Shown here: in pieces, positions 1 through 12,377 of the stretch
Layout: every line of letters begins with the position of its first letter
How positions within the stretch are numbered: the first letter of the stretch is position 1
DNA from: Deinococcales bacterium
GTDB taxonomy: Bacteria; Deinococcota; Deinococci; Deinococcales; JAAFIG01
DNA: 12,377 nt
Direction of reading: 5' to 3'
Assembly (NCBI GenBank): GCA_043778225.1
Contig: JAYWGM010000102.1
Span: 1 to 12,377 of the forward strand
The notes under the pieces: generated by a model
The model's input: the letters and a program-made list of their open reading frames with translations, nothing else
The model's database searches: none
What the model was told of the DNA's origin: nothing
Program-made: the position numbers and the translations under genes

Positions 1-241
1 GTGCCAACTGCCACTTCGCCCTTGGCGCTCCAAGTGCTGTTTTTAAGCCTCCCAGACAAATTTAGTCGCACCGCTTGGCGCTCGAATTGGGTATTCTCGA
101 GCTTGGTCTTGAATGTCAGTGTGTCATTTTTCCAAGTTGCCTCGAGTATACCCAATTCGAGCGCCAAGCGGTGCGACTAAATTTGTCTGGGAGGCTTAAA
201 AACAGCACTTGGAGCGCCAAGGGCGAAGTGGCAGTTGGCAC
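1..241. repeat. Long inverted repeat / fold-back (arms 1-101 and 141-241, 39-nt loop 102-140); probable chimeric contig start
   Basis: 1-94 is the exact reverse complement of 148-241. After one mismatch (95/147), CTCGAG 96-101 pairs with CTCGAG 141-146. Both arms are coding sequence of the TamB-like gene. Confidence 0.95.
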
Positions 242-3200
242 AAGCCGCTCGAGTTTTGAGGCTTCAGAAACTGGTATCCGAGCGCCAAAACTCGATTTGG
301 ATTTGCGTTTAGCACGGCTTTTGGGCTTAGATTTAAATGGACGAATCCTCGGGCAACTCGAGCTTCCAAAATACCAACTCGGGCAACTCGAGGCGGACTT
401 AAAAATTCAAAAAGCAACAGGTTTTGGCGTATCTGCCGATGGATTTTTCCAAGCCAGCCAAGGAAAAATTGTTACCGATTTGCGCGGTCAGACTCCGCTT
501 AATCTCGAGTACAGCTTGATTGGGGCAGTTTACCCAAACCTTAATCTGGCGCTGCAACTCGGGCAACTCAAGGGGCAAGTTTTAGGTAGTCGGCTCGAGT
601 TTACCGACCGCAACCTCAGTCTGGCTTTGGCGGGTCGTTACCTCGAGAAAAGCACCAGTCTCAAAGCCGAAATAAAAGGCGACCAAGTTCGCGCCGAAGC
701 CACTTGGGATGCTGCCCAACTCGAGGCAAGTGGCGAAATCTCGAACTTAAAGGCTTTAGGAACTGTAAAAATAGCTGATTTACAAGGTTTGGCTGGAGTG
801 GCGGGCAGTGCCAGTGCCAAACTCGAGTACAACAACAGTGTGCTAAGTATCTCGAGTATTCTTGCCAAGGCAGCAGGCTTTGAAGCGACGGGCAGTGCCA
901 AATTTGCCGCTGGGATTTTAAGTTTTGAGCAACTCAAGCTGATTGGTGAAGATATAGAAGCTCTTGGCAGTGGGCAAATTTTACCAAAACTCGAGCTTAC
1001 TGGCAGCGCCAAAACCACTTTTGACTTTGCCCCGACGGCTTTGACGTGGCGGGCTACAGGTTCACTCGAGCAACCCAACGTGTTTGCCAATGGTAAATTA
1101 TTGGCTGCCAAACTCGGTTTGATTGCGCCAGATACCACCATCGAAGCTCAGTTCAATGGCAAGTCATGGCGCTTACAATTATCAGGAGAAGCCCTCTCGG
1201 GGGTTGCCGAAGGCGGGCTGAGTTTTGTCTCGAGCGCTAATTTTCGCGTGGCTGCACCAATTATTTTTGAGGACAACCGTTTGAACGCCAAAGGCAACCT
1301 TGCTTGGAATACGCAAAATGGTTTTTCGGGCGGTCTGGGTATTCTTGGGCAGCTTTTTGGACAAGCTGGCGAACTTAAAATTATTGGCAAACAAGAACTC
1401 GAGGTCAACAGCACATGGCGTGATTTGAAACTTCGTGCCACCCTGCCAAGCCAAATCGGGGCAGAACTCGAGGCAAAACTCGAACTCGAGCGTTTGGATT
1501 TGGGGGCGTTGTATGGCAAACCCAAAGCCATTTTTCTCGAGGGCAGTGGACTGGCAAGTGGGCAGTGGGCAAATCCAGAACTTGTGTTTACGGGTTTGCT
1601 GGTCAGTGCCGATACGCTGCTTGATGCTGAGTTGCAATTACAGTATGGCAAAGGAAAAGCCGATTTCAACCTGATGGGTAAAAACCTGCGCGGCAATGGA
1701 ACTTGGGCAAATGGAACTTGGCAAGCCGTGGCTGAGCTTAAAAAAATCGCCCTCGAGCCTTATGTGCCACTGCCTAAGGAACTCGAGCAACCGATTGTCT
1801 CAGGGGCGTTGACGGCTTCAGGAAACGCTACAATATGGCAAGTCAGCAGTAACTTTGATGCCACGGCTCAGGTCGCCATGGTAGGTGCAGTGCGCCTGAC
1901 TGGCAGTGCCAAACTAATGCCAGAGCGCCTACAAACCGCTTTACAACTCGAGGCATTGGGTGGCAATAGCCGCCTGCAAGTTGAAGTTCAAAATCCGCTC
2001 GAGACCGAAAAAGCCATAATTTTACTCAAGGCTGACTTACAAAAAATCGATGTTACCAAACTCAAGGATTTGCAACTGCGCGGTTTGGTTTCTGGGGGCT
2101 TGACGATCAAAGGCAAATTACTCGACCCAAATGTCAATGCCGATTTAACCCTCGAGAAGGTAGGTCTGAGCAGCCAAGATTGGTCGGTCTCGAGCAACCT
2201 CCAAGCCTCGGGGCGATTACTCAATCCTAGCCTGAGTGGCAAAGCGGTTTTATCAGGCAGTGGCGCTGGCAGTTTTGATTGGGTGACTTCTGAGGTGCTG
2301 TCTGATGCCCCCAAAATTCTTTGGGACGGGAGTGCTAAAATCCCATTGGGCAGCGCTCAAGGGCGACTGGAGGGCGCACTACCAAATTTAGCTGGCAAAC
2401 TCGAATTGGTCATCCCACAACTTCCCGAGACCATCGAGATTATAGCGTCTGGCGATGGCACATACCAAGTCAGTAGCAGCAATTTTGCCAACGGCACGGT
2501 CAAGCTAAAAACCCAAAATTCGTGGCTCGAGGGTGCTTTGACTGGTCTGATTCGGGTCAAGACCAATACCGATATTTTTGTGCAGGGCGTGTCCGCCTCG
2601 GTGCTGGGCGATGTACGCTTGGCAGGCACAGTCCAAAATCCGCTGGTCAGTCTCGAGGAAACCCGCCTGATTCGAGCCGATGGCACAGTGCTGGCGGCTG
2701 GGTCAGTTTATCCAAAACTCGATTTACGTGGCACAGCCGAGAGTCAGCTTGAATTTGCCCCAGCTAAGCTCGAGTACCGCTTAGCTGGTTCGTTTGAAAA
2801 ACCAAAGCTAGAGGTTTCTGGGGTGTTAGGCACAGCCCAAGTCGGTCTGATTGCCCCAAATACCCAACTCCAAGCCAGTTTTGATGGTGCAAAGTGGCGC
2901 TTGAATTTGCGCGGCGAAGCCATTTCAGGCGTTCTCGAGGGCGATTTAAGCAGTCTGGCTCGAGTCGAGCTTGCCTTAAATGCACCGATTTTATACAACG
3001 ACACCAGCCTGACGGCACTGGGCAATTTGGCATGGGACAACAACCTTGGTTTTGCTGGCAGCCTAAACTTGCAAGGGCAGTTATTTGGTCAAAACACCAA
3101 GCTCGAGCTTGTTGGACAAAATCAACTTTTGGCAAAATTAAATTGGAAAAATGGGGTTTTACGGGCTTCATTGCCTAGTCCGACCTCAGAAAAATTGGTT

Positions 3201-6200
3201 GCTTCATGGGATTTTGAACGTTTTGACCTTGGCGCGTGGTGGCAAAAACCAGACCAACTTTGGATTGCTGGGGCTGGAAAAGCAACTGGCAGATGGATAA
3301 ATCCCGAATTGGTTTTTGATGGGAGGTTAGAAAGTCTGGATGGCTCGCTGGACTCGAGCCTGAATGCCAGTTATCTGGCAGGGCTGATAAAAGCAAAATT
3401 ATCGGGCGCAAAAACCAAAATCGAAGGGCAATACAAAAACGAAGTCTGGAATGCCAAGGGCAGCCTCGAAAAAGTCGTACTGAATGCCTTACCGACCAAT
3501 CTGGTTAAAGAACTCGAGACCAGCCTCAACTTTGTGGCAAGTGGCAACCCGCAGGGTTTAGAAATCAGCCTAACAAAACTCGAGGCTAAGGGCAAACTCG
3601 AAACCATTGGCGAATTTAGCGCCAGTGCGACCGCCATAAAAACCGATTTAGAAGCTAGGCTCGAGGTCAATAATCTGGCAGTCATGGCACTTGGCGGGCA
3701 AGCAAAATTGGACGGTCAGCTTGCGGGGCAATTACAACTCGGTCTCGAAAAACTAAACCTCGAGCCATTGGGGCTGCAAGGGCTGGTTTCGGGCAACTTT
3801 GACTTGACTGGGAAACTTTTTAATCCGTCGGTCTCGGGGAATCTCCAAGCCTCTGGACTTGGTTTAGCGAACCAAAAATGGTCTGTGGATTCAGAACTCG
3901 AGGTCAGCCGCGAATTATTCAATCCAGCCCTATCTGGAACGCTTTTGTTCAAAGGAACGGGCAGTGGAAAAGTGGCGATTAAGGCTTCTGAGCTTTTCTC
4001 GAGCCGTCCAAATTTGGTCTTAGATGGCGCAGTTCAACTGCCCTTTTTAAGCGCCAAAGGCAATTTAGCTGGGCGTTTTCCAGACTTGCTTGGCTTACTC
4101 GAGATAACCCTGCCAACTGCGCCCTTGGCACTGCGTCAGGTACAACTCGAGGGCATCGGAAAAAATCAATTTCGCGTGGTGGTACAAAAAGTGCTGCAAG
4201 GACAACTCGAGTTGACCAGCGCCAAGACCTTGCTCGAGACTGGGCTGGGTGGTGAGTTTAGTGTCAATGCACCGCTCGAGACCAGTCTAGCGGGTCTGGT
4301 GGCTGGGGCAGATGGCAATTTACAAGGACAAGGGCAAATTTCGGGGACGCTCCAAGCCCCTAAAGTTAGTCTGATTGGCAGCTTAAAGTCGGCTGGTCTA
4401 GCAGGTGTTCAACTTGGCAATGCCAGCCTCAAGGCAAACTATGACGGCAACATCAGCGCCTTTTTAGATTTTGAGGGCGGTCAGTTAAAACTCGAGTCCG
4501 ACCGCCTTACTGCCAGCAATCTACCGCTCGAGGTGGCTGGAATCAGGGCGGCGGTCAATATCTCGGGAAGAACTGCACCATTTGATTTGAACTTCTCGGG
4601 TCTTGTGTCTGGTCTGGCAACGGGTAGCCTTGAGGGTCGCTTGGTCGGCGAACAGCTTGGCTTAAAACTCGATTTGAACTCAAGTGGGGTGCGTTTGACG
4701 GGTACTGCCAACGCCAGTCCAAACAATGGCTGGGGCGGACAAATCAATTTATTTGGCTTACCCAAAGCTGCGCCAATTTCTGGGAAAACCCTGACTGGCA
4801 CAGCCCAATTTGCACTGTCTGGGGCATTTGCTGCTCCGCGTATTGCGGGTACTGGCGATGTTTACGGCGCAAAATTTGCCGTTGGTGGCAGCCTTAGCCC
4901 ACTCTCAGCTAACCTAGAATTGCTCGAGGCTGGTTCTGGCAGTCTGCGACTCGAGGACAACAGCCTGTTCGGTACAATTATTTATCAAGACCAAGCCCTC
5001 AAACTCGAGCTTACTGCCAGTGGGTCTTTGAGTATTCCCGGGGCAGACTTTAAGTTTGGGGTTGGTCAGCTTCGTGCCGATGGCAAGGTCAGGCTCGAGA
5101 ATAACGCCGTCAGTGCAGCTTTTGACCTGACCGACGGCAACCAAAAAGGGCGTTTTCGATTTGAAGATGGGCGGATTATTGGGGAAGTCAAGAATCTATC
5201 GCTGGATAGTTCTGGATTGGCTGGCTACGCAGGTACACTCGACCTCGAAGCTGATTTACGCCAAGACCCAAGCAGCGACTTTGGTTGGCAGGGCAGGGCA
5301 GCAGCAGTCTGGAAAAACCTCAAGACTCCTTTGGAAATACCGACCCTTGGTTGGAAAATAGATGGCTCTGGACGCGCCACACTCAGCACAAAACCAGTGC
5401 GGGTCTTACTCGAGTACGCTGGAACGCCGGGCGTGGCGAGTGGCGACCTTGAATTTCAAAAAGGACTCTGGCAGGGCGATGTGCTGGTGGATTTACGTGG
5501 GGCAGAAGGCAAAGGCGCAGTCAAAGGCAAAATTCGAGCCGACCAAAAAGGATTCACTGGCGATTTGACAGCCCAGAATTTACCGTTGGCTTTTGAGGGT
5601 ATCCGCGCCACAGTTTCGGGTAAAGTGGATTTAACAGGCGATTCGTTTCGTTTGGACGGCAAAGGGGCAGCCCTTGGTGGCGATGTCAAACTAAGTGGTG
5701 GTGGTGGTTTGTCTGATTTGTTGCCATTGCTCGAGTCGTATACCAAAACCCAACCGGGCGACTTACCCATCAACCTGACCGCCAACTTATTTACAGTTCG
5801 TTTGCAAGACCTTGCCCAAGTTCGGGCAGTTGCACCTTATTTGCGTGGGCGGGTCAATGGAACATTAAAAATTGTGGATGACATCACTAACTTTGAGCTT
5901 ACCCAATCCGAAATTAGTCTGCCCGACCAAAACGGCAAGCGCATCACCTTGGCGGCTCGTATTAAAGGCACACTGGCGGGCAATTTAATCAATTACTCAG
6001 GTTCATTTTTGGATACCTTAAATCCAAATCCAAACTTGAGCGCCCTTTCTTTGGCGGGCATTGGCGAATCGCGTTTTACAGGGCGCTTTAATGGCAAAGT
6101 GGCGACTGGCACACTCGAGTTAAGCCGTGCGCCACTTCATGCCTTTGTGGCAAGTGTGCTTGGTGAAATGCCCGGTACTGCGCTTGCCACCGGTTTTGCC

Positions 6201-8126
6201 CGCTATGAAATTCCAATCAATAACTTGTTAGCCGCCACCGTCAAAATGGATTTTGTACCGCTCGAGATTTCGGGTGGCGGCGATACGCTAACTGGCAAAG
6301 GACGCTTAATTTATAGCAATGGCAACTTACAATTTGACAATTTAATTTTGCGCGGTAAAGGCGAGTGGCGCATTAACGGTGATTATGCCAAAGAAAAAGT
6401 GGATTTAGCGATGTCTTTTAAGGACACAGTTTTTACTCCAATTCTAGATTTATTGCCCAGCATCAAAGATTACGACCCTCGAGCCACAGGCAGTTTAGAT
6501 TTACAACTGAGTGGCAAGTACGGTGCGCCCAACGCCAAAGTCAGTCTAAAAAACTTAACCGCTTCAATCAGTGGGATTCAATTGACCGCCAAAGAATTGC
6601 TCGGCAGCCTCGAGAATGGCGCACTCGAGGTTCGTGGTGTTTTGACTTCCGACGATAGCCTTGGCGCAACTTTGGACACCACCGCCAAAGCCAAACTGAC
6701 TTCGTACACCCCAATTCAACTCGAGGACTTAGAAGCCTTGGCAACTGGCAGCCTCAATATCCGACCAATTGGTTTAATCCGCGCCATTAAAGCTCGAGCC
6801 TACGGTGATTCAGGTGGTTTTAAGCTCGACCTAACCGCCCAAAAAGGTGGTGATTTATCGTTGCGTGGCGACATCAGTCCACGAATTCAACTCAAACTCG
6901 AGGGTAAAGCACTGGTGATGCCGATTCCAGATTATTTTGTTGCCGACAGCTTACTCGATGCAATTTTGACTTTTGAAGGTGATGGCGGACGCTTTTACAA
7001 TGTTGGTGGACAACTAAATATTGCGCGTTTACAAACCCAATTGCAACAAAACAGCAGCCCAGTTGCTCCAAAACCCAGCAGCGATGCCAAGCCCAATCCG
7101 TTTTTGCAACAGGTGCGTTTTCGTGGCATCGAAGTGATTGCGCCGCAGGGCATTCGTATTTCTGAATCTTTCTCAACGCTCGAGGCTGGCGGCAAATTGG
7201 TGATTACTGGCACAATGGCAAACCCAGAACTGAGTGGCGCACTCGAGGCAGTTGGCGGCTCTGGTGGGCGCGGTACAGTTCGGCTTGGCATCAACAATTA
7301 CACCATTCAGACCGCAATGGCTGGCTTTAGTCCAATCGAAGGGATTTATCCAAGCATTGAAATTAAATCCAAAGGCGAAGTCAAAGCCTCTTGCACCACC
7401 TTGTCAACACCGATTACAAGCACTGTTTTGGCAATTCCAATTGACCTGATTATTCGGGTGCGTTGGTTATCGGACAGCAAAAATCCAAGCCTAAAACGCA
7501 TTGATGTCCAGCCGACAGTCACGGGTAACTGCCCAGACAATGGAAATTTTCGTCAACTGACCCCTGCCGAATTGTATTCTTTGGTGACCCTAGGCAGCAG
7601 CAATGCTAACCTTGGGGGCTTAGCACAGCAATCTTTAGACACGGTACTTTCGGTTTTTATTCTTGGCGAATTGACCCGACAAATTAAAGCTGCCACGGGT
7701 ATTGACATTGATTTTCGCAGCAATTTAATCGAAGTGGTGGCTCAAAACATCACCGACCCAGCCACCCAAGCGGTGATTAACTTTACGCTTAACTTTGGAA
7801 TTGACCTTTCTCGAGCCGTGCGTTTGAATGTACAAATCAACAACAACCGAATTTACACCGACCCAGAAAACCCCGATAAGCCGAGTCAGTTACTTGGTGG
7901 CGCAATCAATCTCAATTGGCAGTCCGACGATGGGCGTTTTGGAATTCGCTTTGGTACACCATTTTTCTTACCAGACCCAAAACAACAACTCAATGTTTTT
8001 GATGTTATCCAACCAGAAGCCCAATTTAGCTTTAACCTCTCCAATGCTTGGGCAATTTCAACCACCCTTGGCATTCCGGCTGGCAATAACTTTAGAGTCA
8101 CTTTTGGGGTCAGCTTTAGATTCTAA
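75..8126 (+). CDS. tamB: Giant TamB/DUF490 (AsmA-like, translocation and assembly module) envelope protein, 5'-partial. The TTG at 75 lies in the fold-back arm and is probably not the real start; reliable sequence begins at about 141-148.
   Basis: 2683-aa open frame rich in Gly/Leu with alternating beta-strand pattern and recurrent 'G(T/S)LxxPxxxG' turns. The C-terminal region (PFLQQVRF..IEVIAPQGIRI..EAGGKLVITGTMANPELSG) resembles DUF490/TamB C-termini and ends FGVSFRF. No N-terminal anchor helix is present, consistent with truncation. Family recognised by eye; no HMM was run. Confidence 0.8.
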   Translation: MALELGILELGLECQCVIFPSCLEYTQFERQAVRLNLSGRLKNSTWSAKGEVAVGTSRSSFEASETGIRAPKLDLDLRLARLLGLDLNGRILGQLELPKYQLGQLEADLKIQKATGFGVSADGFFQASQGKIVTDLRGQTPLNLEYSLIGAVYPNLNLALQLGQLKGQVLGSRLEFTDRNLSLALAGRYLEKSTSLKAEIKGDQVRAEATWDAAQLEASGEISNLKALGTVKIADLQGLAGVAGSASAKLEYNNSVLSISSILAKAAGFEATGSAKFAAGILSFEQLKLIGEDIEALGSGQILPKLELTGSAKTTFDFAPTALTWRATGSLEQPNVFANGKLLAAKLGLIAPDTTIEAQFNGKSWRLQLSGEALSGVAEGGLSFVSSANFRVAAPIIFEDNRLNAKGNLAWNTQNGFSGGLGILGQLFGQAGELKIIGKQELEVNSTWRDLKLRATLPSQIGAELEAKLELERLDLGALYGKPKAIFLEGSGLASGQWANPELVFTGLLVSADTLLDAELQLQYGKGKADFNLMGKNLRGNGTWANGTWQAVAELKKIALEPYVPLPKELEQPIVSGALTASGNATIWQVSSNFDATAQVAMVGAVRLTGSAKLMPERLQTALQLEALGGNSRLQVEVQNPLETEKAIILLKADLQKIDVTKLKDLQLRGLVSGGLTIKGKLLDPNVNADLTLEKVGLSSQDWSVSSNLQASGRLLNPSLSGKAVLSGSGAGSFDWVTSEVLSDAPKILWDGSAKIPLGSAQGRLEGALPNLAGKLELVIPQLPETIEIIASGDGTYQVSSSNFANGTVKLKTQNSWLEGALTGLIRVKTNTDIFVQGVSASVLGDVRLAGTVQNPLVSLEETRLIRADGTVLAAGSVYPKLDLRGTAESQLEFAPAKLEYRLAGSFEKPKLEVSGVLGTAQVGLIAPNTQLQASFDGAKWRLNLRGEAISGVLEGDLSSLARVELALNAPILYNDTSLTALGNLAWDNNLGFAGSLNLQGQLFGQNTKLELVGQNQLLAKLNWKNGVLRASLPSPTSEKLVASWDFERFDLGAWWQKPDQLWIAGAGKATGRWINPELVFDGRLESLDGSLDSSLNASYLAGLIKAKLSGAKTKIEGQYKNEVWNAKGSLEKVVLNALPTNLVKELETSLNFVASGNPQGLEISLTKLEAKGKLETIGEFSASATAIKTDLEARLEVNNLAVMALGGQAKLDGQLAGQLQLGLEKLNLEPLGLQGLVSGNFDLTGKLFNPSVSGNLQASGLGLANQKWSVDSELEVSRELFNPALSGTLLFKGTGSGKVAIKASELFSSRPNLVLDGAVQLPFLSAKGNLAGRFPDLLGLLEITLPTAPLALRQVQLEGIGKNQFRVVVQKVLQGQLELTSAKTLLETGLGGEFSVNAPLETSLAGLVAGADGNLQGQGQISGTLQAPKVSLIGSLKSAGLAGVQLGNASLKANYDGNISAFLDFEGGQLKLESDRLTASNLPLEVAGIRAAVNISGRTAPFDLNFSGLVSGLATGSLEGRLVGEQLGLKLDLNSSGVRLTGTANASPNNGWGGQINLFGLPKAAPISGKTLTGTAQFALSGAFAAPRIAGTGDVYGAKFAVGGSLSPLSANLELLEAGSGSLRLEDNSLFGTIIYQDQALKLELTASGSLSIPGADFKFGVGQLRADGKVRLENNAVSAAFDLTDGNQKGRFRFEDGRIIGEVKNLSLDSSGLAGYAGTLDLEADLRQDPSSDFGWQGRAAAVWKNLKTPLEIPTLGWKIDGSGRATLSTKPVRVLLEYAGTPGVASGDLEFQKGLWQGDVLVDLRGAEGKGAVKGKIRADQKGFTGDLTAQNLPLAFEGIRATVSGKVDLTGDSFRLDGKGAALGGDVKLSGGGGLSDLLPLLESYTKTQPGDLPINLTANLFTVRLQDLAQVRAVAPYLRGRVNGTLKIVDDITNFELTQSEISLPDQNGKRITLAARIKGTLAGNLINYSGSFLDTLNPNPNLSALSLAGIGESRFTGRFNGKVATGTLELSRAPLHAFVASVLGEMPGTALATGFARYEIPINNLLAATVKMDFVPLEISGGGDTLTGKGRLIYSNGNLQFDNLILRGKGEWRINGDYAKEKVDLAMSFKDTVFTPILDLLPSIKDYDPRATGSLDLQLSGKYGAPNAKVSLKNLTASISGIQLTAKELLGSLENGALEVRGVLTSDDSLGATLDTTAKAKLTSYTPIQLEDLEALATGSLNIRPIGLIRAIKARAYGDSGGFKLDLTAQKGGDLSLRGDISPRIQLKLEGKALVMPIPDYFVADSLLDAILTFEGDGGRFYNVGGQLNIARLQTQLQQNSSPVAPKPSSDAKPNPFLQQVRFRGIEVIAPQGIRISESFSTLEAGGKLVITGTMANPELSGALEAVGGSGGRGTVRLGINNYTIQTAMAGFSPIEGIYPSIEIKSKGEVKASCTTLSTPITSTVLAIPIDLIIRVRWLSDSKNPSLKRIDVQPTVTGNCPDNGNFRQLTPAELYSLVTLGSSNANLGGLAQQSLDTVLSVFILGELTRQIKAATGIDIDFRSNLIEVVAQNITDPATQAVINFTLNFGIDLSRAVRLNVQINNNRIYTDPENPDKPSQLLGGAINLNWQSDDGRFGIRFGTPFFLPDPKQQLNVFDVIQPEAQFSFNLSNAWAISTTLGIPAGNNFRVTFGVSFRF
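972..4375 (+). repeat. Intragenic tandem duplication in the TamB-like gene: copy 1 about 972-2660, copy 2 about 2700-4375 (period 1728 nt = 576 aa at the 5' end)
   Basis: Three anchors share an exact 1728-nt offset: PKLEL/PKLDL (990/2718), GQLFGQ (1347/3075) and NPELVF (1572/3300). Further matches are GLIAP, GNLAW, GLVSG..GKL, WSV.S.L and GT(V/L)Q.P.VSL. Confidence 0.9.
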
Positions 8127-9471
8127 AAGCCTCCTCGAGACTTTCTTGTACAATTCCAACAATCTCGGTGATTTCAGCGCTCGAGACGGTGAGCGGCGGC
8201 GCAATCGCAATACCATTATCGCCACAACGCACAATCAAACCACGTTTTCGGGTAGCAACTTGGAGCTTGCTGCCAATCGAAAGCGGCGGATAAGCGGCTT
8301 TGGTGGTTTTATCCTGCACCACTTCGACCAGCATCATTAAGCCCTTGGCGCGAACATCACCAACGTTGGGATGTGCCAGTACACTCTGCATTTGCTCGAG
8401 TAATTCTAAGCCACGCACTCGAGCATTTTCGGGCAACGTTTCCGACTCGAGGATAGCAATGTTCTCGAGTGCCACAGCGCACGCCACTGGATGCCCCGAG
8501 TAGGTAAAGCCGTGCATAAACATTCGGTCGGGTTGAATCAGTTGGTTATAAATCGCGTCGGTCACACCGACCGCCCCAAGTGGAATATAGCCACTGGTGA
8601 TGCCTTTAGCCAGACACAAAATATCTGGCGCAAAGTCATAAGTCTGAATACCAAACATCTTTCCCGAGCGTCCAAAGCCAGTAATCACCTCATCGGCAAT
8701 CAACAAAATCTGGTATTTATCGCAGACTTGACGAATCATTTGCCAGTAGCCATCTGGGGCGGGGCAAACCCCACCCGCGCCTTGGGTTGGTTCACCTAAA
8801 AATGCGGCAATGGTCTGTGCGCCCTCACGTGCAATTGTCTCCTCGAGTTCGGTTTCAAGGCTTTTAAGAAAGGCTTCTGGCTCGAGATTATGCGGGTTGG
8901 AACGGTAAAAATTTGGGCTGCTGACGTGTAAAAAACCAAGTGCGGCTGGACCAAAATCTTTCCAGTAGGCGGGTACGCCCGTGGCGGTTGTGGTCAGACC
9001 ACCAATGCCGTGGTAGGCATTGTGTCTCGAGATAATTTTAATCTTTTCGGGTTGGTTTTGAATTGCCCAAAAGTACCGCGCGATTTTGATGGCGCTTTCG
9101 TTGGATTCCGAGCCACCAGAGGTAAACTGAAAATGATTGATGCTGCCCGGTACGATTTGCGCCAGTTTGGCTGCCAATTCAATACTTGGTGGTGTGGCTA
9201 AACCAAAAAAATTAGGCGCAAATGCCAAAGTGTTCATCTGGGTTTTGGCGGCTTCGGCAAGTACGCTGCGCCCGTGTCCGACGTTGATGTTCCAAAGTCC
9301 AGCAAAGCCATCTAGGTACGATTTTCCAGTGCTGTCCCAAACTCGAGTGCCTTGTCCTTTGGTCAGGATTAAAGCTCCAGTTTTGGCATGGCGGTGCAAA
9401 TTGGTGACTGGGTGCAGAATATGCGCTAAATCTAAAGCCAGAAGCCGTTCGGTATCCCAAGATGAGGTCAT
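8116..9471 (-). CDS. Class-III PLP-dependent aminotransferase (omega-amino acid / polyamine:pyruvate transaminase-like)
   Basis: 451 aa with motifs YLDGFAGLWNINVGHGR, SGGSESNE, AYHG, EPTQGAGG, LLIADEVITGFGRSG, LAKGITSGYIPLG (PLP lysine) and HGFTYSGHPVACAVA. Substrate cannot be fixed from the sequence. Confidence 0.93.
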   Translation of the reverse strand: MTSSWDTERLLALDLAHILHPVTNLHRHAKTGALILTKGQGTRVWDSTGKSYLDGFAGLWNINVGHGRSVLAEAAKTQMNTLAFAPNFFGLATPPSIELAAKLAQIVPGSINHFQFTSGGSESNESAIKIARYFWAIQNQPEKIKIISRHNAYHGIGGLTTTATGVPAYWKDFGPAALGFLHVSSPNFYRSNPHNLEPEAFLKSLETELEETIAREGAQTIAAFLGEPTQGAGGVCPAPDGYWQMIRQVCDKYQILLIADEVITGFGRSGKMFGIQTYDFAPDILCLAKGITSGYIPLGAVGVTDAIYNQLIQPDRMFMHGFTYSGHPVACAVALENIAILESETLPENARVRGLELLEQMQSVLAHPNVGDVRAKGLMMLVEVVQDKTTKAAYPPLSIGSKLQVATRKRGLIVRCGDNGIAIAPPLTVSSAEITEIVGIVQESLEEAFRI

Positions 9472-9477
9472 AAACCA

Positions 9478-9483
9478 ATTCTA
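9478..9483 (-). promoter_or_regulatory. Putative -10 box (TAGAAT) of a leaderless promoter for the aminotransferase
   Basis: Minus strand reads CTCGAG-G-TAGAAT-tggttt-ATG(9471). TANNNT lies 6 nt before the ATG, matching the leaderless architecture known to be common in Deinococcus. Confidence 0.65.
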
Positions 9484-9534
9484 CCTCGAGAAAGGTCTGC
9501 TTTTATCTCGAGAACAACCGATTTGCCATGAAAG

Positions 9535-10386
9535 TCACTGAGCCTGCATTTTGGCAGCCAACACCGTGTTGTACAGTAAATGTGAGACCGTCATTGGTCC
9601 AACCCCACCGGGGACTGGTGTAATCGCGGAGGCTATCGCCGTTACGTCAGTGCTACAATCGCCAACCAGTTTTTGGGTACCATCCACCAGAATTCGGTTA
9701 ATGCTGACATCTATCACCACCGCACCCGCTTTGACAAATTCTGGGGTAATAAAATTCACCCGTCCCACAGCCGTGACCAAAATATCGGCTTCCCTTGCCA
9801 CACTTGCAAGCTCAACCGTTCTCGAGTGGGCAATCGTGACGGTGGCGTTGCGCTCGAGACACAGGGCTGCCAAGGGCTTACCAACCAATTGCGAACGGTT
9901 GATAATCACGACTCGCTTACCCTCGAGTGGAATGTTGTAAAAATCGAGCATTGAAATAATCCCAGCTGGTGTACAACTGCGTAAGCCAACCTGTCCAGCC
10001 CAGAGCCGTCCAGTGTTGACGACGTGCAAGCCATCCACATCTTTATTGGGGTCAATGGCTGCCAGAATCACGCTTTCGCGGATGCTTGAGCCTTTAGGAA
10101 AAGGCAACTGCACCAAAATACCATGTGTGCCACTATCGGCATTCAAAACTTTAATCAACTCGAGCAAAGTGTTTTCCGAGGTATCGGCGGGCAATTCGGT
10201 CAGGGTGCTGTCCATGCCGATTTTTTTGGCACGGCGGGCTTTAAGGCGAGTATACGAAACACTGGCGGGGTCATCGCCAACCCGAACAACGTGCAAATGT
10301 GGTTTGAAACCTAAAGCCGCCATTTGGGCTTGGGCTTGCTCGAGTAATGCTGCCGCCGCGAGGTTGCCATCTAAAATTTGGGTCAT
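9535..10386 (-). CDS. folD: Bifunctional methylenetetrahydrofolate dehydrogenase/cyclohydrolase FolD
   Basis: 283 aa with VGDDPASVSYTRLK (YxxxK), HGILVQLP, IDPNKDVDG, CTPAG, RSxLVGKP, ATVTIAHSRT, ADILVTAVG and ITPVPGGVGPMT. ATGA overlap with the nusB stop (10383-10386). Confidence 0.97.
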   Translation of the reverse strand: MTQILDGNLAAAALLEQAQAQMAALGFKPHLHVVRVGDDPASVSYTRLKARRAKKIGMDSTLTELPADTSENTLLELIKVLNADSGTHGILVQLPFPKGSSIRESVILAAIDPNKDVDGLHVVNTGRLWAGQVGLRSCTPAGIISMLDFYNIPLEGKRVVIINRSQLVGKPLAALCLERNATVTIAHSRTVELASVAREADILVTAVGRVNFITPEFVKAGAVVIDVSINRILVDGTQKLVGDCSTDVTAIASAITPVPGGVGPMTVSHLLYNTVLAAKMQAQ

Positions 10387-10961
10387 GGCGTTCCGCTTTG
10401 GCTGCTGCGCTTTTTGGCACTGCGCCCTTTATTGGCTCGTTTTTCTGGCGAGGCTTCACGCTCGAGTAACCGCGCCAAAACACCATTGACAAATTTGCTC
10501 GAGTCGTCGCCACCGTAGCGCTTGGCAAGGCGCACCGCAATTTCGATGGCTACAGCAGCTGGGGTCGGGAAGTGCAGAATTTCAAAACTGGCAAGGCGTA
10601 AAATGGCTAAATCGGTTTGGCTCATTTGGCTAAACGTCCAGCCCTCAATCACCCGTTGCAAGGTCTGGTCTACGTGGTCGCGGTATTCGTCGTAACCAAG
10701 CAATAAGCGGTGGGCAAAGGCAATCGCTTCGGGGTTAAGGCTCTCAGAGCTTGCCTCGAGCATTCCCTCTTCGGTTTCGGGGTCGAGGGCATCATCGAGG
10801 GCGTGCTGTAAATCGAGTTTGGCTTCCGCCCATGCAACGTTAATGCTGTGTTTACCTTGTTCGCTCGAGAACAAAACCCGAAATGCAAGTTCTCGAGCTT
10901 TGTTACTGCCATTTAAGACAGGTGAACTGTTACTGCCATTCAGCGTAAGTGCTTCAGACAT
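10383..10961 (-). CDS. nusB: Transcription antitermination factor NusB (start placed at ATG 10961, MSEALTL)
   Basis: Motifs ARELAFRVLF, GWTFSQMSQTDLAILRLA.FEI and VAIEIAVRLAKRYGGDDSSKFVNGVLARL. Lies between asp23 and folD, a conserved context. ATG 10961 overlaps the asp23 stop (ATGTCTGA), suggesting translational coupling. Confidence 0.95.
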   Translation of the reverse strand: MSEALTLNGSNSSPVLNGSNKARELAFRVLFSSEQGKHSINVAWAEAKLDLQHALDDALDPETEEGMLEASSESLNPEAIAFAHRLLLGYDEYRDHVDQTLQRVIEGWTFSQMSQTDLAILRLASFEILHFPTPAAVAIEIAVRLAKRYGGDDSSKFVNGVLARLLEREASPEKRANKGRSAKKRSSQSGTP

Positions 10962-11307
10962 TGGCAACCATAGGCAGCACAACACCTTGCACCGTCACAT
11001 TGACGCTTTGCACACTTAACCCAGTCATCACTTCGATGTTTTCGGCAACTGTGCGTTGGACTTCTTTAGCCACATCGGGAATAACCCTGCCATAATCAAC
11101 ATTGACGCTTAAATCGACCACGACATTGCTGCCGTCCCTCGAGACGTTAATGCCTTTAAGGCGTTTACCATTAAAAAATTCGCCGAGTTGCAATGGCGGC
11201 GAGACTGGCACTACGCCTTGCACACTCTCGAGGGCGATACTGGCAATACCAGTAATCACGTCTTTGTTAATATCTACATCCAAATTTTTCGCGCCTTTAG
11301 CAGCCAT
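10954..11307 (-). CDS. Asp23/Gls24 family envelope stress response protein
   Basis: 117 aa with VITGIASIALESVQGV, KGINV, VVVDLSVNVDYGRVIPDVAKEVQRTV and IEVMTGLSVQSVNVTVQGV. Directly upstream of nusB. Confidence 0.93.
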   Translation of the reverse strand: MAAKGAKNLDVDINKDVITGIASIALESVQGVVPVSPPLQLGEFFNGKRLKGINVSRDGSNVVVDLSVNVDYGRVIPDVAKEVQRTVAENIEVMTGLSVQSVNVTVQGVVLPMVANV

Positions 11308-11313
11308 AGGCGT

Positions 11314-11319
11314 ATTCTA
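11314..11319 (-). promoter_or_regulatory. Putative -10 box (TAGAAT) of a leaderless promoter for the asp23-nusB-folD operon
   Basis: Minus strand reads CTCGAG-C-TAGAAT-acgcct-ATG(11307). No Shine-Dalgarno sequence; same spacing as the aminotransferase promoter. Confidence 0.7.
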
Positions 11320-11327
11320 GCTCGAGA

Positions 11328-12260
11328 ATGAATTGTTTTCTAGGTCTAAAAGCTGACGCAGCCCAAGCTCCAAGCCCATCCTCGAGCAACACCGCCCCAC
11401 TCCAAGCTGCACCAAGTGGGGTCGCTGTGACAGCCAGCAGTGTCTCGAGTCCAAATAGTGTTCCAAGTGCGCCAAGTGTTACCGCCTCGAGTGTCACCAG
11501 CCCTAATGCCAGTGTCTCGAGTCCGAGTGTAGTCTCGAGTGTTAGTAGTCCTAGTGCCTCGAGTTCGGCTTCTGTGGTCTCGAGTGTTACGCCTGTTGGT
11601 GTGACTGTTAAGCCGTTGGATTTAACGGCTGGTCAAATTGCTGGTGTGAAAAAGATTCTCCAAGATATTTATAGTCCCGCCATGTCCTTAGCCGATAATG
11701 CCGAATTGAGTGAAAAAGAAACTCAGCTCTTGCTTGATGAAATAGAAGCACGGTCACAACAAGAGATGGCAAACCAAACAGCAGCCATGTACTTACGCAC
11801 TGGGCAATGTGCTTCGGCTGGTGCGTGTCAAAAGAAAGCCGAAGAGGATGTAAAAGCAATTTTTGAATATCAAAATGTGATGGGAATGTCCCAAGAAGAC
11901 CGAATCAAAATGAACGCTGATTTAGCAGTTGGCTTGTACACTGGGGCAACCAATAAAGATAAATTCGAGGGTATCAGACATGATGCAGCTTGGACAGTCA
12001 ACACAGTAAAAGCCTGTGAGAAAAATGGTCAACTTGGTGCTGATTGTAATAAATTAAATGCTTTGGCTAAAAGTGGAGCATATAAGCCTGGTGGTAAGAT
12101 GGACTTAGCAAATCGTGCTAATAGTTATTTGGGTAAAGAAAGTAAAGCACTTGTTAATGGTGCTGAGAATACTGCAATTAGACACATCAATCGCGGAATA
12201 TTAAACTATTGTCAGAGCTTAGAGCGTGTTTATAAAGTGGGTAAAGTCGGTCAGAATTAA
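11328..12260 (+). CDS. Hypothetical protein with Ser/Pro/Val-rich low-complexity N-terminus and Cys-containing helical C-region; probably 3'-truncated by an IS at 12222 (possible pseudogene)
   Basis: 310-aa ORF with no recognisable family. The last 12 residues and the stop (ERVYKVGKVGQN*) come from the apparent IS end. The start codon is uncertain, being only 20 nt from the divergent asp23 ATG. Confidence 0.6.
   Translation: MNCFLGLKADAAQAPSPSSSNTAPLQAAPSGVAVTASSVSSPNSVPSAPSVTASSVTSPNASVSSPSVVSSVSSPSASSSASVVSSVTPVGVTVKPLDLTAGQIAGVKKILQDIYSPAMSLADNAELSEKETQLLLDEIEARSQQEMANQTAAMYLRTGQCASAGACQKKAEEDVKAIFEYQNVMGMSQEDRIKMNADLAVGLYTGATNKDKFEGIRHDAAWTVNTVKACEKNGQLGADCNKLNALAKSGAYKPGGKMDLANRANSYLGKESKALVNGAENTAIRHINRGILNYCQSLERVYKVGKVGQN
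11381..11585 (+). repeat. Degenerate coding repeat G(T/C)CTCGAGT encoding (V/A)-Ser-Ser
   Basis: CTCGAG at 11381, 11444, 11486, 11516, 11534, 11558 and 11579. The last six are GYCTCGAGT. Spacings 63, 42, 30, 18, 24 and 21 are all multiples of 3. Confidence 0.8.
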
Positions 12261-12377
12261 GCTGTGAAACAAAAAACCTATACCAGTAGCCTTACCCGTG
12301 AACAGTTTAAGCGTCTCGAGCCATTATTACCACTGGCTAAAAGTGGTGGTCGTCCAAGAACAGTAGAAATGTTCGAG
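12222..12377 (+). mobile_element. Left end of an IS5-family insertion sequence (IS1031-like), truncated by the window
   Basis: TTA (12219-12221), a TWA-type target, is followed by GAGCGTGTTTATAAAGT, resembling IS1031-group terminal inverted repeats as I recall them. A transposase start follows 42 nt inside. The right end is not visible, so the boundary is inferred. Confidence 0.75.
12264..12377 (+). CDS. IS5-family transposase N-terminus (DUF4096-like), 3'-partial
   Basis: GTG start gives MKQKTYTSSLTREQFKRLEPLLPLAKSGGRPRTVEMFE, matching the Y-x-S-x-L-(T/S)...(L/I)EPLLP...GGRPR N-terminal signature of IS5 transposases. Too short to appear in the ORF track. Confidence 0.88.
   Translation, partial: MKQKTYTSSLTREQFKRLEPLLPLAKSGGRPRTVEMFE

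Follow-up and report, generated by a model that had tools for sequence, protein, structure and literature searches.

Introduction

To our knowledge, highly iterated palindromes (HIPs) have for three decades been described in a single phylum, the cyanobacteria, and their function is debated, the proposed roles being methylation-linked repair, chromosome structure and transformation. The present study concerns the hexamer CTCGAG in a 12,377-nt stretch of DNA from a Deinococcales bacterium (contig JAYWGM010000102.1; hereafter the window), which is the whole contig C102 of its source assembly, genome G000. CTCGAG behaves here as a HIP, although the host is not a cyanobacterium. It occurs about once per 162 nt in the source genome, a density that we take to exceed that of the cyanobacterial word HIP1.

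HIP1 (GCGATCGC) is described in passages of Xu et al. 2018 (PMC5861425) as a palindrome over-represented 15-300-fold, located within and between genes and conserved beyond background; the same study gives it a periodic distribution over 10-90 kb of the chromosome. Passages of Elhai 2015 (PMC4390886) tie it to two orphan methylases. More recent work reportedly links HIP1 to natural transformation (PMC13756078; bioRxiv 10.1101/2024.09.10.611283) and studies it by phylogenetic correlation with gene families (PMC13756078). CTCGAG shares with HIP1 the palindromic form, the occurrence in genes and spacers, the conservation between genomes, and a lineage-wide distribution with exceptions. It differs in the phylum, in the word, in its length (6 bp versus 8 bp), and in that no family-wide methyltransferase was found. 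Among the features by which HIPs are recognized (Elhai 2015; Xu et al. 2018), a palindrome excess of more than 10-fold, presence in genes as well as spacers, and conservation were all observed for CTCGAG; a methyltransferase present wherever the word is abundant was not. The alternate HIPs of cyanobacteria are confined to single genomes or small groups, whereas CTCGAG extends over a whole family, with weaker versions across the order. Each alternate HIP is reportedly accompanied by a methylase of matching specificity, and no such methylase was found for CTCGAG. One of them is the palindromic hexamer GGCGCC, whose observed-to-expected ratio (O/E) stands far outside the usual range in Calothrix PCC 7103 (passages of Elhai 2015, PMC4390886).

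CTCGAG also resembles the DNA uptake sequences (DUS) of Neisseriaceae and the uptake signal sequences (USS) of Pasteurellaceae, in being a short over-represented word in genes and spacers, in its conservation within the family, in its distortion of proteins and in the presence of competence genes. DUS and USS are asymmetric words of 9-12 nt with extended flanks, at about 1/kb, unlike CTCGAG, a palindrome of only 6 bp that reaches 6/kb and lacks a flank signal. Of what marks such systems, the competence machinery is present here, and an asymmetric 9-12-nt word with flanks is not. Uptake sequences show a genome-wide excess, family-level conservation and protein distortion, and molecular drive can explain their accumulation (passages of PMC1939737, and general knowledge).

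With the CCWGG system, CTCGAG would have in common a repair process by which a short word related to a palindrome changes in frequency. In E. coli, the bias of Dcm methylation and Vsr repair around CCWGG is small, and the T-containing neighbours are depleted. In contrast, CTCGAG is in 27-48-fold excess, its neighbours are not depleted, none of 18 family genomes gave a Vsr hit, and one family genome (G010) yielded no C5 methylase. The recognition word of the XhoI/PaeR7I restriction-modification systems is CTCGAG itself, and one relative, G021, has such a nuclease next to a methylase gene. Genomes normally avoid restriction sites; CTCGAG, on the contrary, is abundant, none of 19 genomes of the family showed this type of nuclease, and the G021 methylase has no close family homologue.

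Results

Abundance of the word

The window contains 94 exact copies of CTCGAG, the first at 96-101 and the last at 12315-12320. In 200 dinucleotide-preserving shuffles of the window the mean number was 1.82 and the maximum 6; none of the 200 reached 94. TCGA occurs 132 times, and 94 of these (71%) are CTCGAG. GAGCTC, which has the half-words of CTCGAG in the reverse order, is absent from the window. The sequence-only reading from which this analysis started had estimated about 94 CTCGAG and about 132 TCGA, with about 70% of the latter flanked by C and G, and the recount gave exactly the two numbers. It had also placed the word in every gene: all six long open reading frames (ORFs) carry it, with 2-61 copies each and densities of 5.7-8.3/kb. 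The copies that it had put outside the genes or in a transposase (starting at 9485, 9507, 11321 and 12315) are the same four that lie outside the long ORFs. Contigs from two runs that carry the window sequence are both identical to the window, as compared at the level of contigs.

The source genome (4,029,277 nt in 107 contigs, the longest of 139 kb; 48.7% GC) contains 24,877 copies, or 6.17/kb, so that 3.7% of its bases are inside the word. The O/E was 26.7 under an order-0 Markov model, 47.5 under order 1, 15.1 under order 2 and 3.6 under order 3; the low values at the higher orders arise because the word itself saturates those models. The excess thus stays under the Markov check that had been proposed for it. 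CTCGAG is by far the commonest hexamer, and the next five are its own one-base extensions. In the genome, 68% of TCGA is within CTCGAG, and the other TCGA is unremarkable. All 107 contigs carry the word, at 3.99-10.6/kb; the enrichment is therefore not confined to one contig. Such a confinement was one of the outcomes that the sequence-only reading had named as fatal to its proposal.

The flanks of CTCGAG in the source genome hold at most 0.04 bit per position, at positions -3 to -1 only. The unit is therefore 6 bp, in agreement with the earlier impression of variable flanks. The 8-bp palindrome CCTCGAGG is specifically scarce (243 copies, about 3-fold below the prediction from independent flank frequencies), and the other three extensions to an 8-bp palindrome are slightly under-represented, at 0.74-0.88.

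Many other 6-bp palindromes are almost absent from the source genome, among them GAGCTC (24 copies), GGCGCC (3), GACGTC, AGGCCT and GGGCCC (1 each), CTGCAG (13), TGCGCA (11), GTGCAC (9) and TTTAAA (129, versus about 2,580 expected). This scarcity is accompanied by at least 20 DNA methylase hits. As a side observation, the scarcity of GAGCTC may be the footprint of a SacI-type restriction system, or may be tied to the reader of CTCGAG.

Coding and non-coding DNA

A crude set of 3,474 ORFs, with a minimum length of 100 aa, covers 88.9% of the source genome. The density of CTCGAG was 6.17/kb in these ORFs and 6.19/kb outside them. A set of 1,425 short intergenic spacers (43% GC, 144.9 kb in total) held 931 copies (6.43/kb, versus 0.18/kb expected); shuffling gave 23 copies, and the excess is about 40-fold. 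Around starts and stops, the density stayed at 6-7/kb over the whole range from -300 to +300, the sole dip being 3.9/kb in the first 20 coding nucleotides. The tRNA genes are poorer in the word: only 6 of 68 carry it, at about 1.1/kb. Genes for rRNA were sought in the source assembly as a further constrained control by three primer-like patterns, and none was found. It was observed separately that a cluster of tRNA genes (Ser, Cys, Glu and Met) at G000:C19:9937-12769, within 3 kb, has CTCGAG inside each of its members.

The word might be a by-product of codon usage, of proteins rich in Leu-Glu, or of base composition. The copies in the three coding frames number 13,002, 4,445 and 4,617, so that 59% of the coding copies are in the CTC-GAG frame, and in one high-GC relative (G022, below) codon usage does account for the whole count. 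However, within-gene synonymous shuffling, which keeps the proteins and the codon usage of each gene, gave 2,302-2,457 copies versus 22,064 observed, a 9.4-fold excess. This control had been suggested by the sequence-only reading, together with the prospect that the excess might vanish once codon usage and dipeptide frequency were controlled; it did not vanish. The 40-fold excess in spacers, the equal density in coding and non-coding DNA, the near absence of GAGCTC and the persistence of the excess over loci of 45-66% GC are likewise not explained in this way. The by-product explanation is refuted.

Copies of a short mobile repeat, or an artefact of assembly or library, were also considered. 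The source genome does hold an insertion sequence at the window end, and also an element of about 140 nt (reference copy G000:C101:44335-44474, L350:4335-4474), which is present in about 30 copies at 79-99% identity and in dozens of copies in genomes of the same genus; it is possibly a miniature mobile element. Against this explanation, the reference copy of this repeat contains no CTCGAG, the flanks of the word are unrelated and without information, and orthologous in-frame sites are found in genomes from different records, one of them a single contig. This origin is refuted as well. These results show that the CTCGAG excess acts on the word in double-stranded DNA, not on codons, peptides or a mobile repeat.

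Effect on proteins

Leu-Glu is the most over-represented dipeptide of the source genome (18,795 copies, O/E 2.33), and 69% of its copies are coded by CTCGAG. Ser-Ser is also raised, with an O/E of 1.58. At 13 in-frame CTC-GAG positions in the four conserved genes of the window, orthologues from outside the family mostly have other residues. For the four such positions of folD, eight out-family orthologues give 32 cells, of which 29 hold something other than Leu-Glu; column 302 has Leu-Glu in all 12 family orthologues and in none of the eight others. The out-family orthologue of the aminotransferase is mostly without Leu-Glu where the window has it coded by CTCGAG. As shown by these alignments, Leu-Glu was evidently pushed into proteins by the pressure for CTCGAG.

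Retention, turnover and spacing

A 32-kb portion of the source genome was aligned with the orthologous pieces of seven genomes of the same genus, at 72-80% identity. The sites of the source genome were also CTCGAG in 50-73% of cases in each of the seven, versus 18-32% for other hexamers; these genomes are related, so the site counts are not independent. In the window alone, 90 of 141 site comparisons were shared, versus 28% for control hexamers. Where two other species have the word, the source genome retains it in 84-86% of cases, versus 53-55% for controls under the same definition. Loss of an existing CTCGAG is thus about three times rarer than loss of a control hexamer.

The sites are nevertheless turned over: in each triplet of genomes, 8-10 sites were gained and 4-7 lost in the source genome alone, most of the identifiable losses being single transitions. 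One-off ancestral words were seen at 1-4 positions per triplet, too few for a gain rate. Recently imported restriction-modification islets of low GC in the source genome have 0 copies in about 3.4 kb, and the word therefore builds up slowly. The one-off neighbours of CTCGAG are near baseline in the source genome (O/E 0.15-1.41), with no bias to the outer positions.

The spacing of the word is near-geometric, with a mean of 160.6 nt and a coefficient of variation of 1.00, and up to 600 nt no periodicity stands out beyond the 3-nt coding period. Spacings of 8-17 nt are depleted to 0.2-0.6 of baseline. No pair spaced by 6 nt exists in the source genome, because such a pair would create GAGCTC, which is itself nearly absent. 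There is a slight excess at a spacing of 7 nt (CTCGAGNCTCGAG; 123 cases), some of it inside terminator-like hairpins. A repeat family was considered for these pairs and rejected: their contexts are nearly all unique, and all four central bases occur.

Distribution among relatives

The FolD loci closest to that of the window belong to metagenome-assembled genomes (MAGs) labelled Deinococcota and Deinococcales, at 82-83% identity. The next is a MAG of Meiothermus sp. at 58%, whose locus has 20 CTCGAG in 6.8 kb (2.9/kb). With the genome-wide excess surviving its controls, this placement bears out the earlier suggestion of a HIP-like system outside cyanobacteria. All 18 other sampled genomes of the source family, from five genera, have the word at 4.3-6.8/kb; the loci read from them have 45-66% GC. 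GAGCTC has 0-25 copies in 15 of these 18, and 62 in G019.

Outside the family, 40-60 kb were sampled per genome, with a non-coding part of only 4-13 kb. The ratio given here is that of the copies observed in ORFs to the mean after synonymous shuffling. G030 (family f5) has 2.57/kb with a ratio of 3.5, and 2.4/kb in its non-coding part. In family f4, G025 has 2.63/kb (ratio 2.0), and G021 has 1.7-1.8/kb (ratio 1.9), which is five times the order-0 expectation. G019 (family f2) has 1.5/kb and a ratio of 1.5. In the high-GC genome G022 (family f5), the 1.2/kb is explained by codon usage (ratio 0.71), and GAGCTC is equally common. In G020 (family f3) the word is depleted, at 0.05/kb and a ratio of 0.26.

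A survey of the phylum covered 201 genomes, all labelled with the same order, Deinococcales. The source family has 5.2-6.2/kb in this survey. Genera g13, g14 and g15 have 1.4-3.5/kb, with GAGCTC much rarer, and family f2 has 0.3-2.6/kb. In g9 (30 genomes), the density is 0.6-1.6/kb and GAGCTC is equally common; this genus, to which G022 belongs, falls in one family with g13-g15 and so contrasts with its nearest neighbours. The 83 genomes of g7 have 26-1,010 copies, at most 0.27/kb. G196 has 13,562 copies in 3.8 Mb (3.6/kb), and belongs to a family whose main genus (83 genomes, at most 0.27/kb) avoids the word. Across the order the trait thus forms a gradient, with its extreme in the source family and a reversal in one large genus. 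The survey of other Deinococcota that the sequence-only reading had called for thus finds the enrichment in 18 of 18 family genomes and, more weakly, elsewhere in the order.

Among viral contigs, considered as possible phage carriers of the word, at least 126 stretches have three closely spaced CTCGAG. Nearly all of the 80 that were fetched are of high GC with GAGCTC common. Five of the 80 (L246, L303, L231, L253 and L225) have 2.6-3.9/kb with 0-2 GAGCTC, and none of these resembles the source genome with its 49% GC.

Search for a cognate enzyme

In the HIP1-type model (Elhai 2015), one or more methyltransferases acting on CTCGAG or TCGA, together with a methyl-dependent mismatch-repair or restriction-like activity, would create and maintain the sites. 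CTCGAG is a classical type II site, and HIP1 itself is associated with two orphan methylases (passages of PMC4390886). The source genome is also rich in methylase genes (8 Eco57I-type, 6 N6/N4, 6 C5 and 4 D12 hits), and many other palindromes are nearly absent from it. Methylases of five Pfam families were surveyed in 5-6 family genomes from five genera and clustered at 35-40% identity or more. No methylase orthogroup spanning more than three of these genomes was found; four of the five comparison genomes are drafts of 87-94% completeness, specificity is not readable from such sequences, and unknown folds are missed by the survey. No C5 methylase was found in G010, and no N6/N4 methylase in G013, which is a single contig. 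TaqI_C domains occur in 5 of the 18 family genomes.

Three groups of candidates were rejected as the cognate enzyme. The TaqI_C-bearing methylase of the source genome (C65, 650 aa) is present in only 2 of 18 family genomes. The D12 (Dam-like) methylases gave hits in all five genomes searched, but these form unrelated groups at about 25% identity. The best orthogroups of HsdM-type N6 methylases span three of five genomes; enzymes of this type belong to type I systems with bipartite sites.

For the XhoI nuclease family (PF04555), none of 19 family genomes gave a hit with a model that does match in G021; the search was made with this one family of CTCGAG-cutting nucleases. At locus L386 of G021 (G021:C1:73699-77256), an XhoI-family endonuclease of 312 aa is convergent with an N6/N4 methylase of 340 aa, and this genome, the only one of the order with such a nuclease, still has 1.7/kb of the word. 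The coexistence is in favour of the HIP1-type model. On the other hand, none of the methylases collected from the family exceeds 29% full-length identity to that of G021. No Vsr turned up in 18 family genomes, and the transition neighbours of CTCGAG are not depleted, with O/E of 1.41 for CTTGAG/CTCAAG and 1.37 for TTCGAG; there is no deamination signature at either C. The one-off variants also show no bias to the outer positions.

The methylation- or repair-driven origin put forward by the sequence-only reading is thus not supported. A correlation with an orphan CTCGAG/TCGA methyltransferase did not emerge, as no methyltransferase common to the family was found, and a Vsr-type drive finds no footing in either the genes or the neighbours. 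The other origin that it had put forward, a chromosome-wide protein-binding or uptake signal, may be correct. The HIP1-type model is considered quite unlikely for CTCGAG.

The competence genes comEC and dprA are each present in 17 of 18 family genomes, and also in all 12 out-family genomes. Being equally present in families poor in the word or avoiding it, they do not discriminate. It was noted besides that dprA lies two genes upstream of a D12-class methylase-like ORF of 380 aa (G000:C89:21497-24828); this ORF has no match in the four other family genomes searched.

Features of the window

The features of the window are collected in Table 1. The last ~100 nt recur at 96-99% identity on contigs C36, C100, C79 and C41, two of which carry this sequence at their ends, and the contig depth at this repeat is about 10-fold higher. 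One frame there resembles the N-terminus of what we take to be an IS5-type transposase. The contig stops at this position because of the multi-copy insertion sequence. The transposase proposed earlier for the window end is thus plausible, given the multi-copy ends, the raised depth and the transposase-like frame. It had also been stated that the responsible gene is not in the window. This holds in so far as no DNA methylase or nuclease family was detected in it; it is not secured by two of the six scanned ORFs, which match no Pfam family.

Table 1. Positions of CTCGAG and of the genes in the 12,377-nt window
Feature	Position	Strand	Basis
CTCGAG array, 94 copies, 7.6/kb	96..12320	.	word count, shuffles
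Giant ORF, 2,683 aa, 61 of 94 copies (7.6/kb)	75..8126	+	no Pfam family at E<=0.001
Class-III aminotransferase gene, 10 copies	8116..9471	-	Pfam scan
Two intergenic CTCGAG (9485-9490, 9507-9512), aminotransferase/folD spacer	9485..9512	.	word count
folD, 5 copies	9535..10386	-	Pfam scan
nusB (5 copies) and Asp23-family gene (2 copies)	10383..11307	-	Pfam scan
Intergenic CTCGAG, spacer between Asp23-family gene and next ORF	11321..11326	.	word count
310-aa ORF, 7 copies clustered at 11381-11584	11328..12260	+	no Pfam family
End of multi-copy insertion sequence; last copy (12315-12320) codes Leu-Glu in transposase-like N-terminus	12218..12377	+	

Discussion

Proposed mechanism

From the counts above, it is practically certain that CTCGAG is a real, lineage-wide highly iterated palindrome. 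The word is exact and symmetric, and for this reason a reader with two-fold symmetry, probably a dimer, would recognize the hexamer on double-stranded DNA. In a simple reversible model, each copy would gain a weak, reversible fixation bias of about ln(27-48) = 3.3-3.9 population-scaled units. Alleles bearing the word might be favoured when DNA is exchanged, if fragments that contain it are taken up and recombined preferentially, in the manner of uptake sequences. Alternatively, the correction of heteroduplexes might be biased towards CTCGAG. Either route would operate independently of a conserved cognate methyltransferase. One-off neighbours near baseline are what a reversible fixation bias is expected to leave. 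The equal density in and outside genes, the near-random spacing, the slow build-up, the baseline neighbours, and retention together with turnover all fit such a weak bias.

The same dimeric reader could act at the level of the organism. An abundant dimeric protein might bind the dense array, as a nucleoid or architecture factor or by reading the word as a mark of "self" in defence or repair, and selection would then keep the sites. The exact palindromic hexamer suggests a dimeric reader, and sites are retained above background. The absence of the word from recently acquired islets means that its density separates self from foreign DNA, and the deficit of spacings under about 20 nt could reflect a footprint. 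Selection and a nucleoid role have been argued for HIP1 in passages of Xu et al. 2018 (PMC5861425). However, any single site out of 25,000 should add very little to fitness, and still the bias per site is clear. The flat density through promoters and gene ends is unexpected for a tightly bound protein, the near-geometric spacing lacks a periodicity other than that of codons, and no candidate protein was found. This explanation is possible but doubtful.

Since selection would have to see a single site among 25,000, a transmission bias, or molecular drive, towards CTCGAG is favoured over organism-level selection on these sites. This account is given a little less than an even chance of being correct. 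The fuller proposal is that CTCGAG is a methylation-independent signal, read at DNA exchange or in self-recognition, which would have been spread through Deinococcales by drive; it is advanced only tentatively, with a rather modest chance of holding in all its parts.

Several points weigh against the proposed drive. No reader protein was found in the genomes analysed, and the drive rests on population-genetic reasoning. The genes comEC and dprA are just as present where the word is lacking or avoided, so that their presence only fails to refute such a drive. In its length, symmetry, density (6/kb) and absence of flank signal, this 6-bp palindrome is unlike the known uptake sequences, and DNA uptake in Thermus and Deinococcus is not known to depend on sequence. 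The retention of sites cannot separate drive from selection. The deficit of 8-17-nt spacings needs an extra cost that drive does not explain. Moreover, unrelated methylases of the same specificity, or a methylase of an unknown fold, could escape the Pfam survey.

Implications

No published account of the CTCGAG phenomenon was found in the literature searched, which covered few subscription journals and excluded supplements. Likewise, no report of it was found in the HIP1 literature. On the practical side, digestion with XhoI or TaqI should leave only very short pieces of this DNA, unless modification protects it. Within these genomes, the density of CTCGAG marks native versus recently imported DNA.

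CTCGAG represents a second, independent and denser case of a HIP, in another phylum and with the same hallmarks: action at the level of the word, conservation, and a cost to proteins. The search for a conserved cognate methylase gave none, which speaks against methylation as a necessary part of the phenomenon. Because the trait is graded over about 200 genomes and reversed in one genus, phylogenetic correlation could lead to the responsible factor, and culturable relatives could serve to test it. If CTCGAG is indeed a signal spread by drive, these bacteria would offer, separately from the cyanobacteria, a natural experiment in which to look for the reader and the function of highly iterated palindromes.

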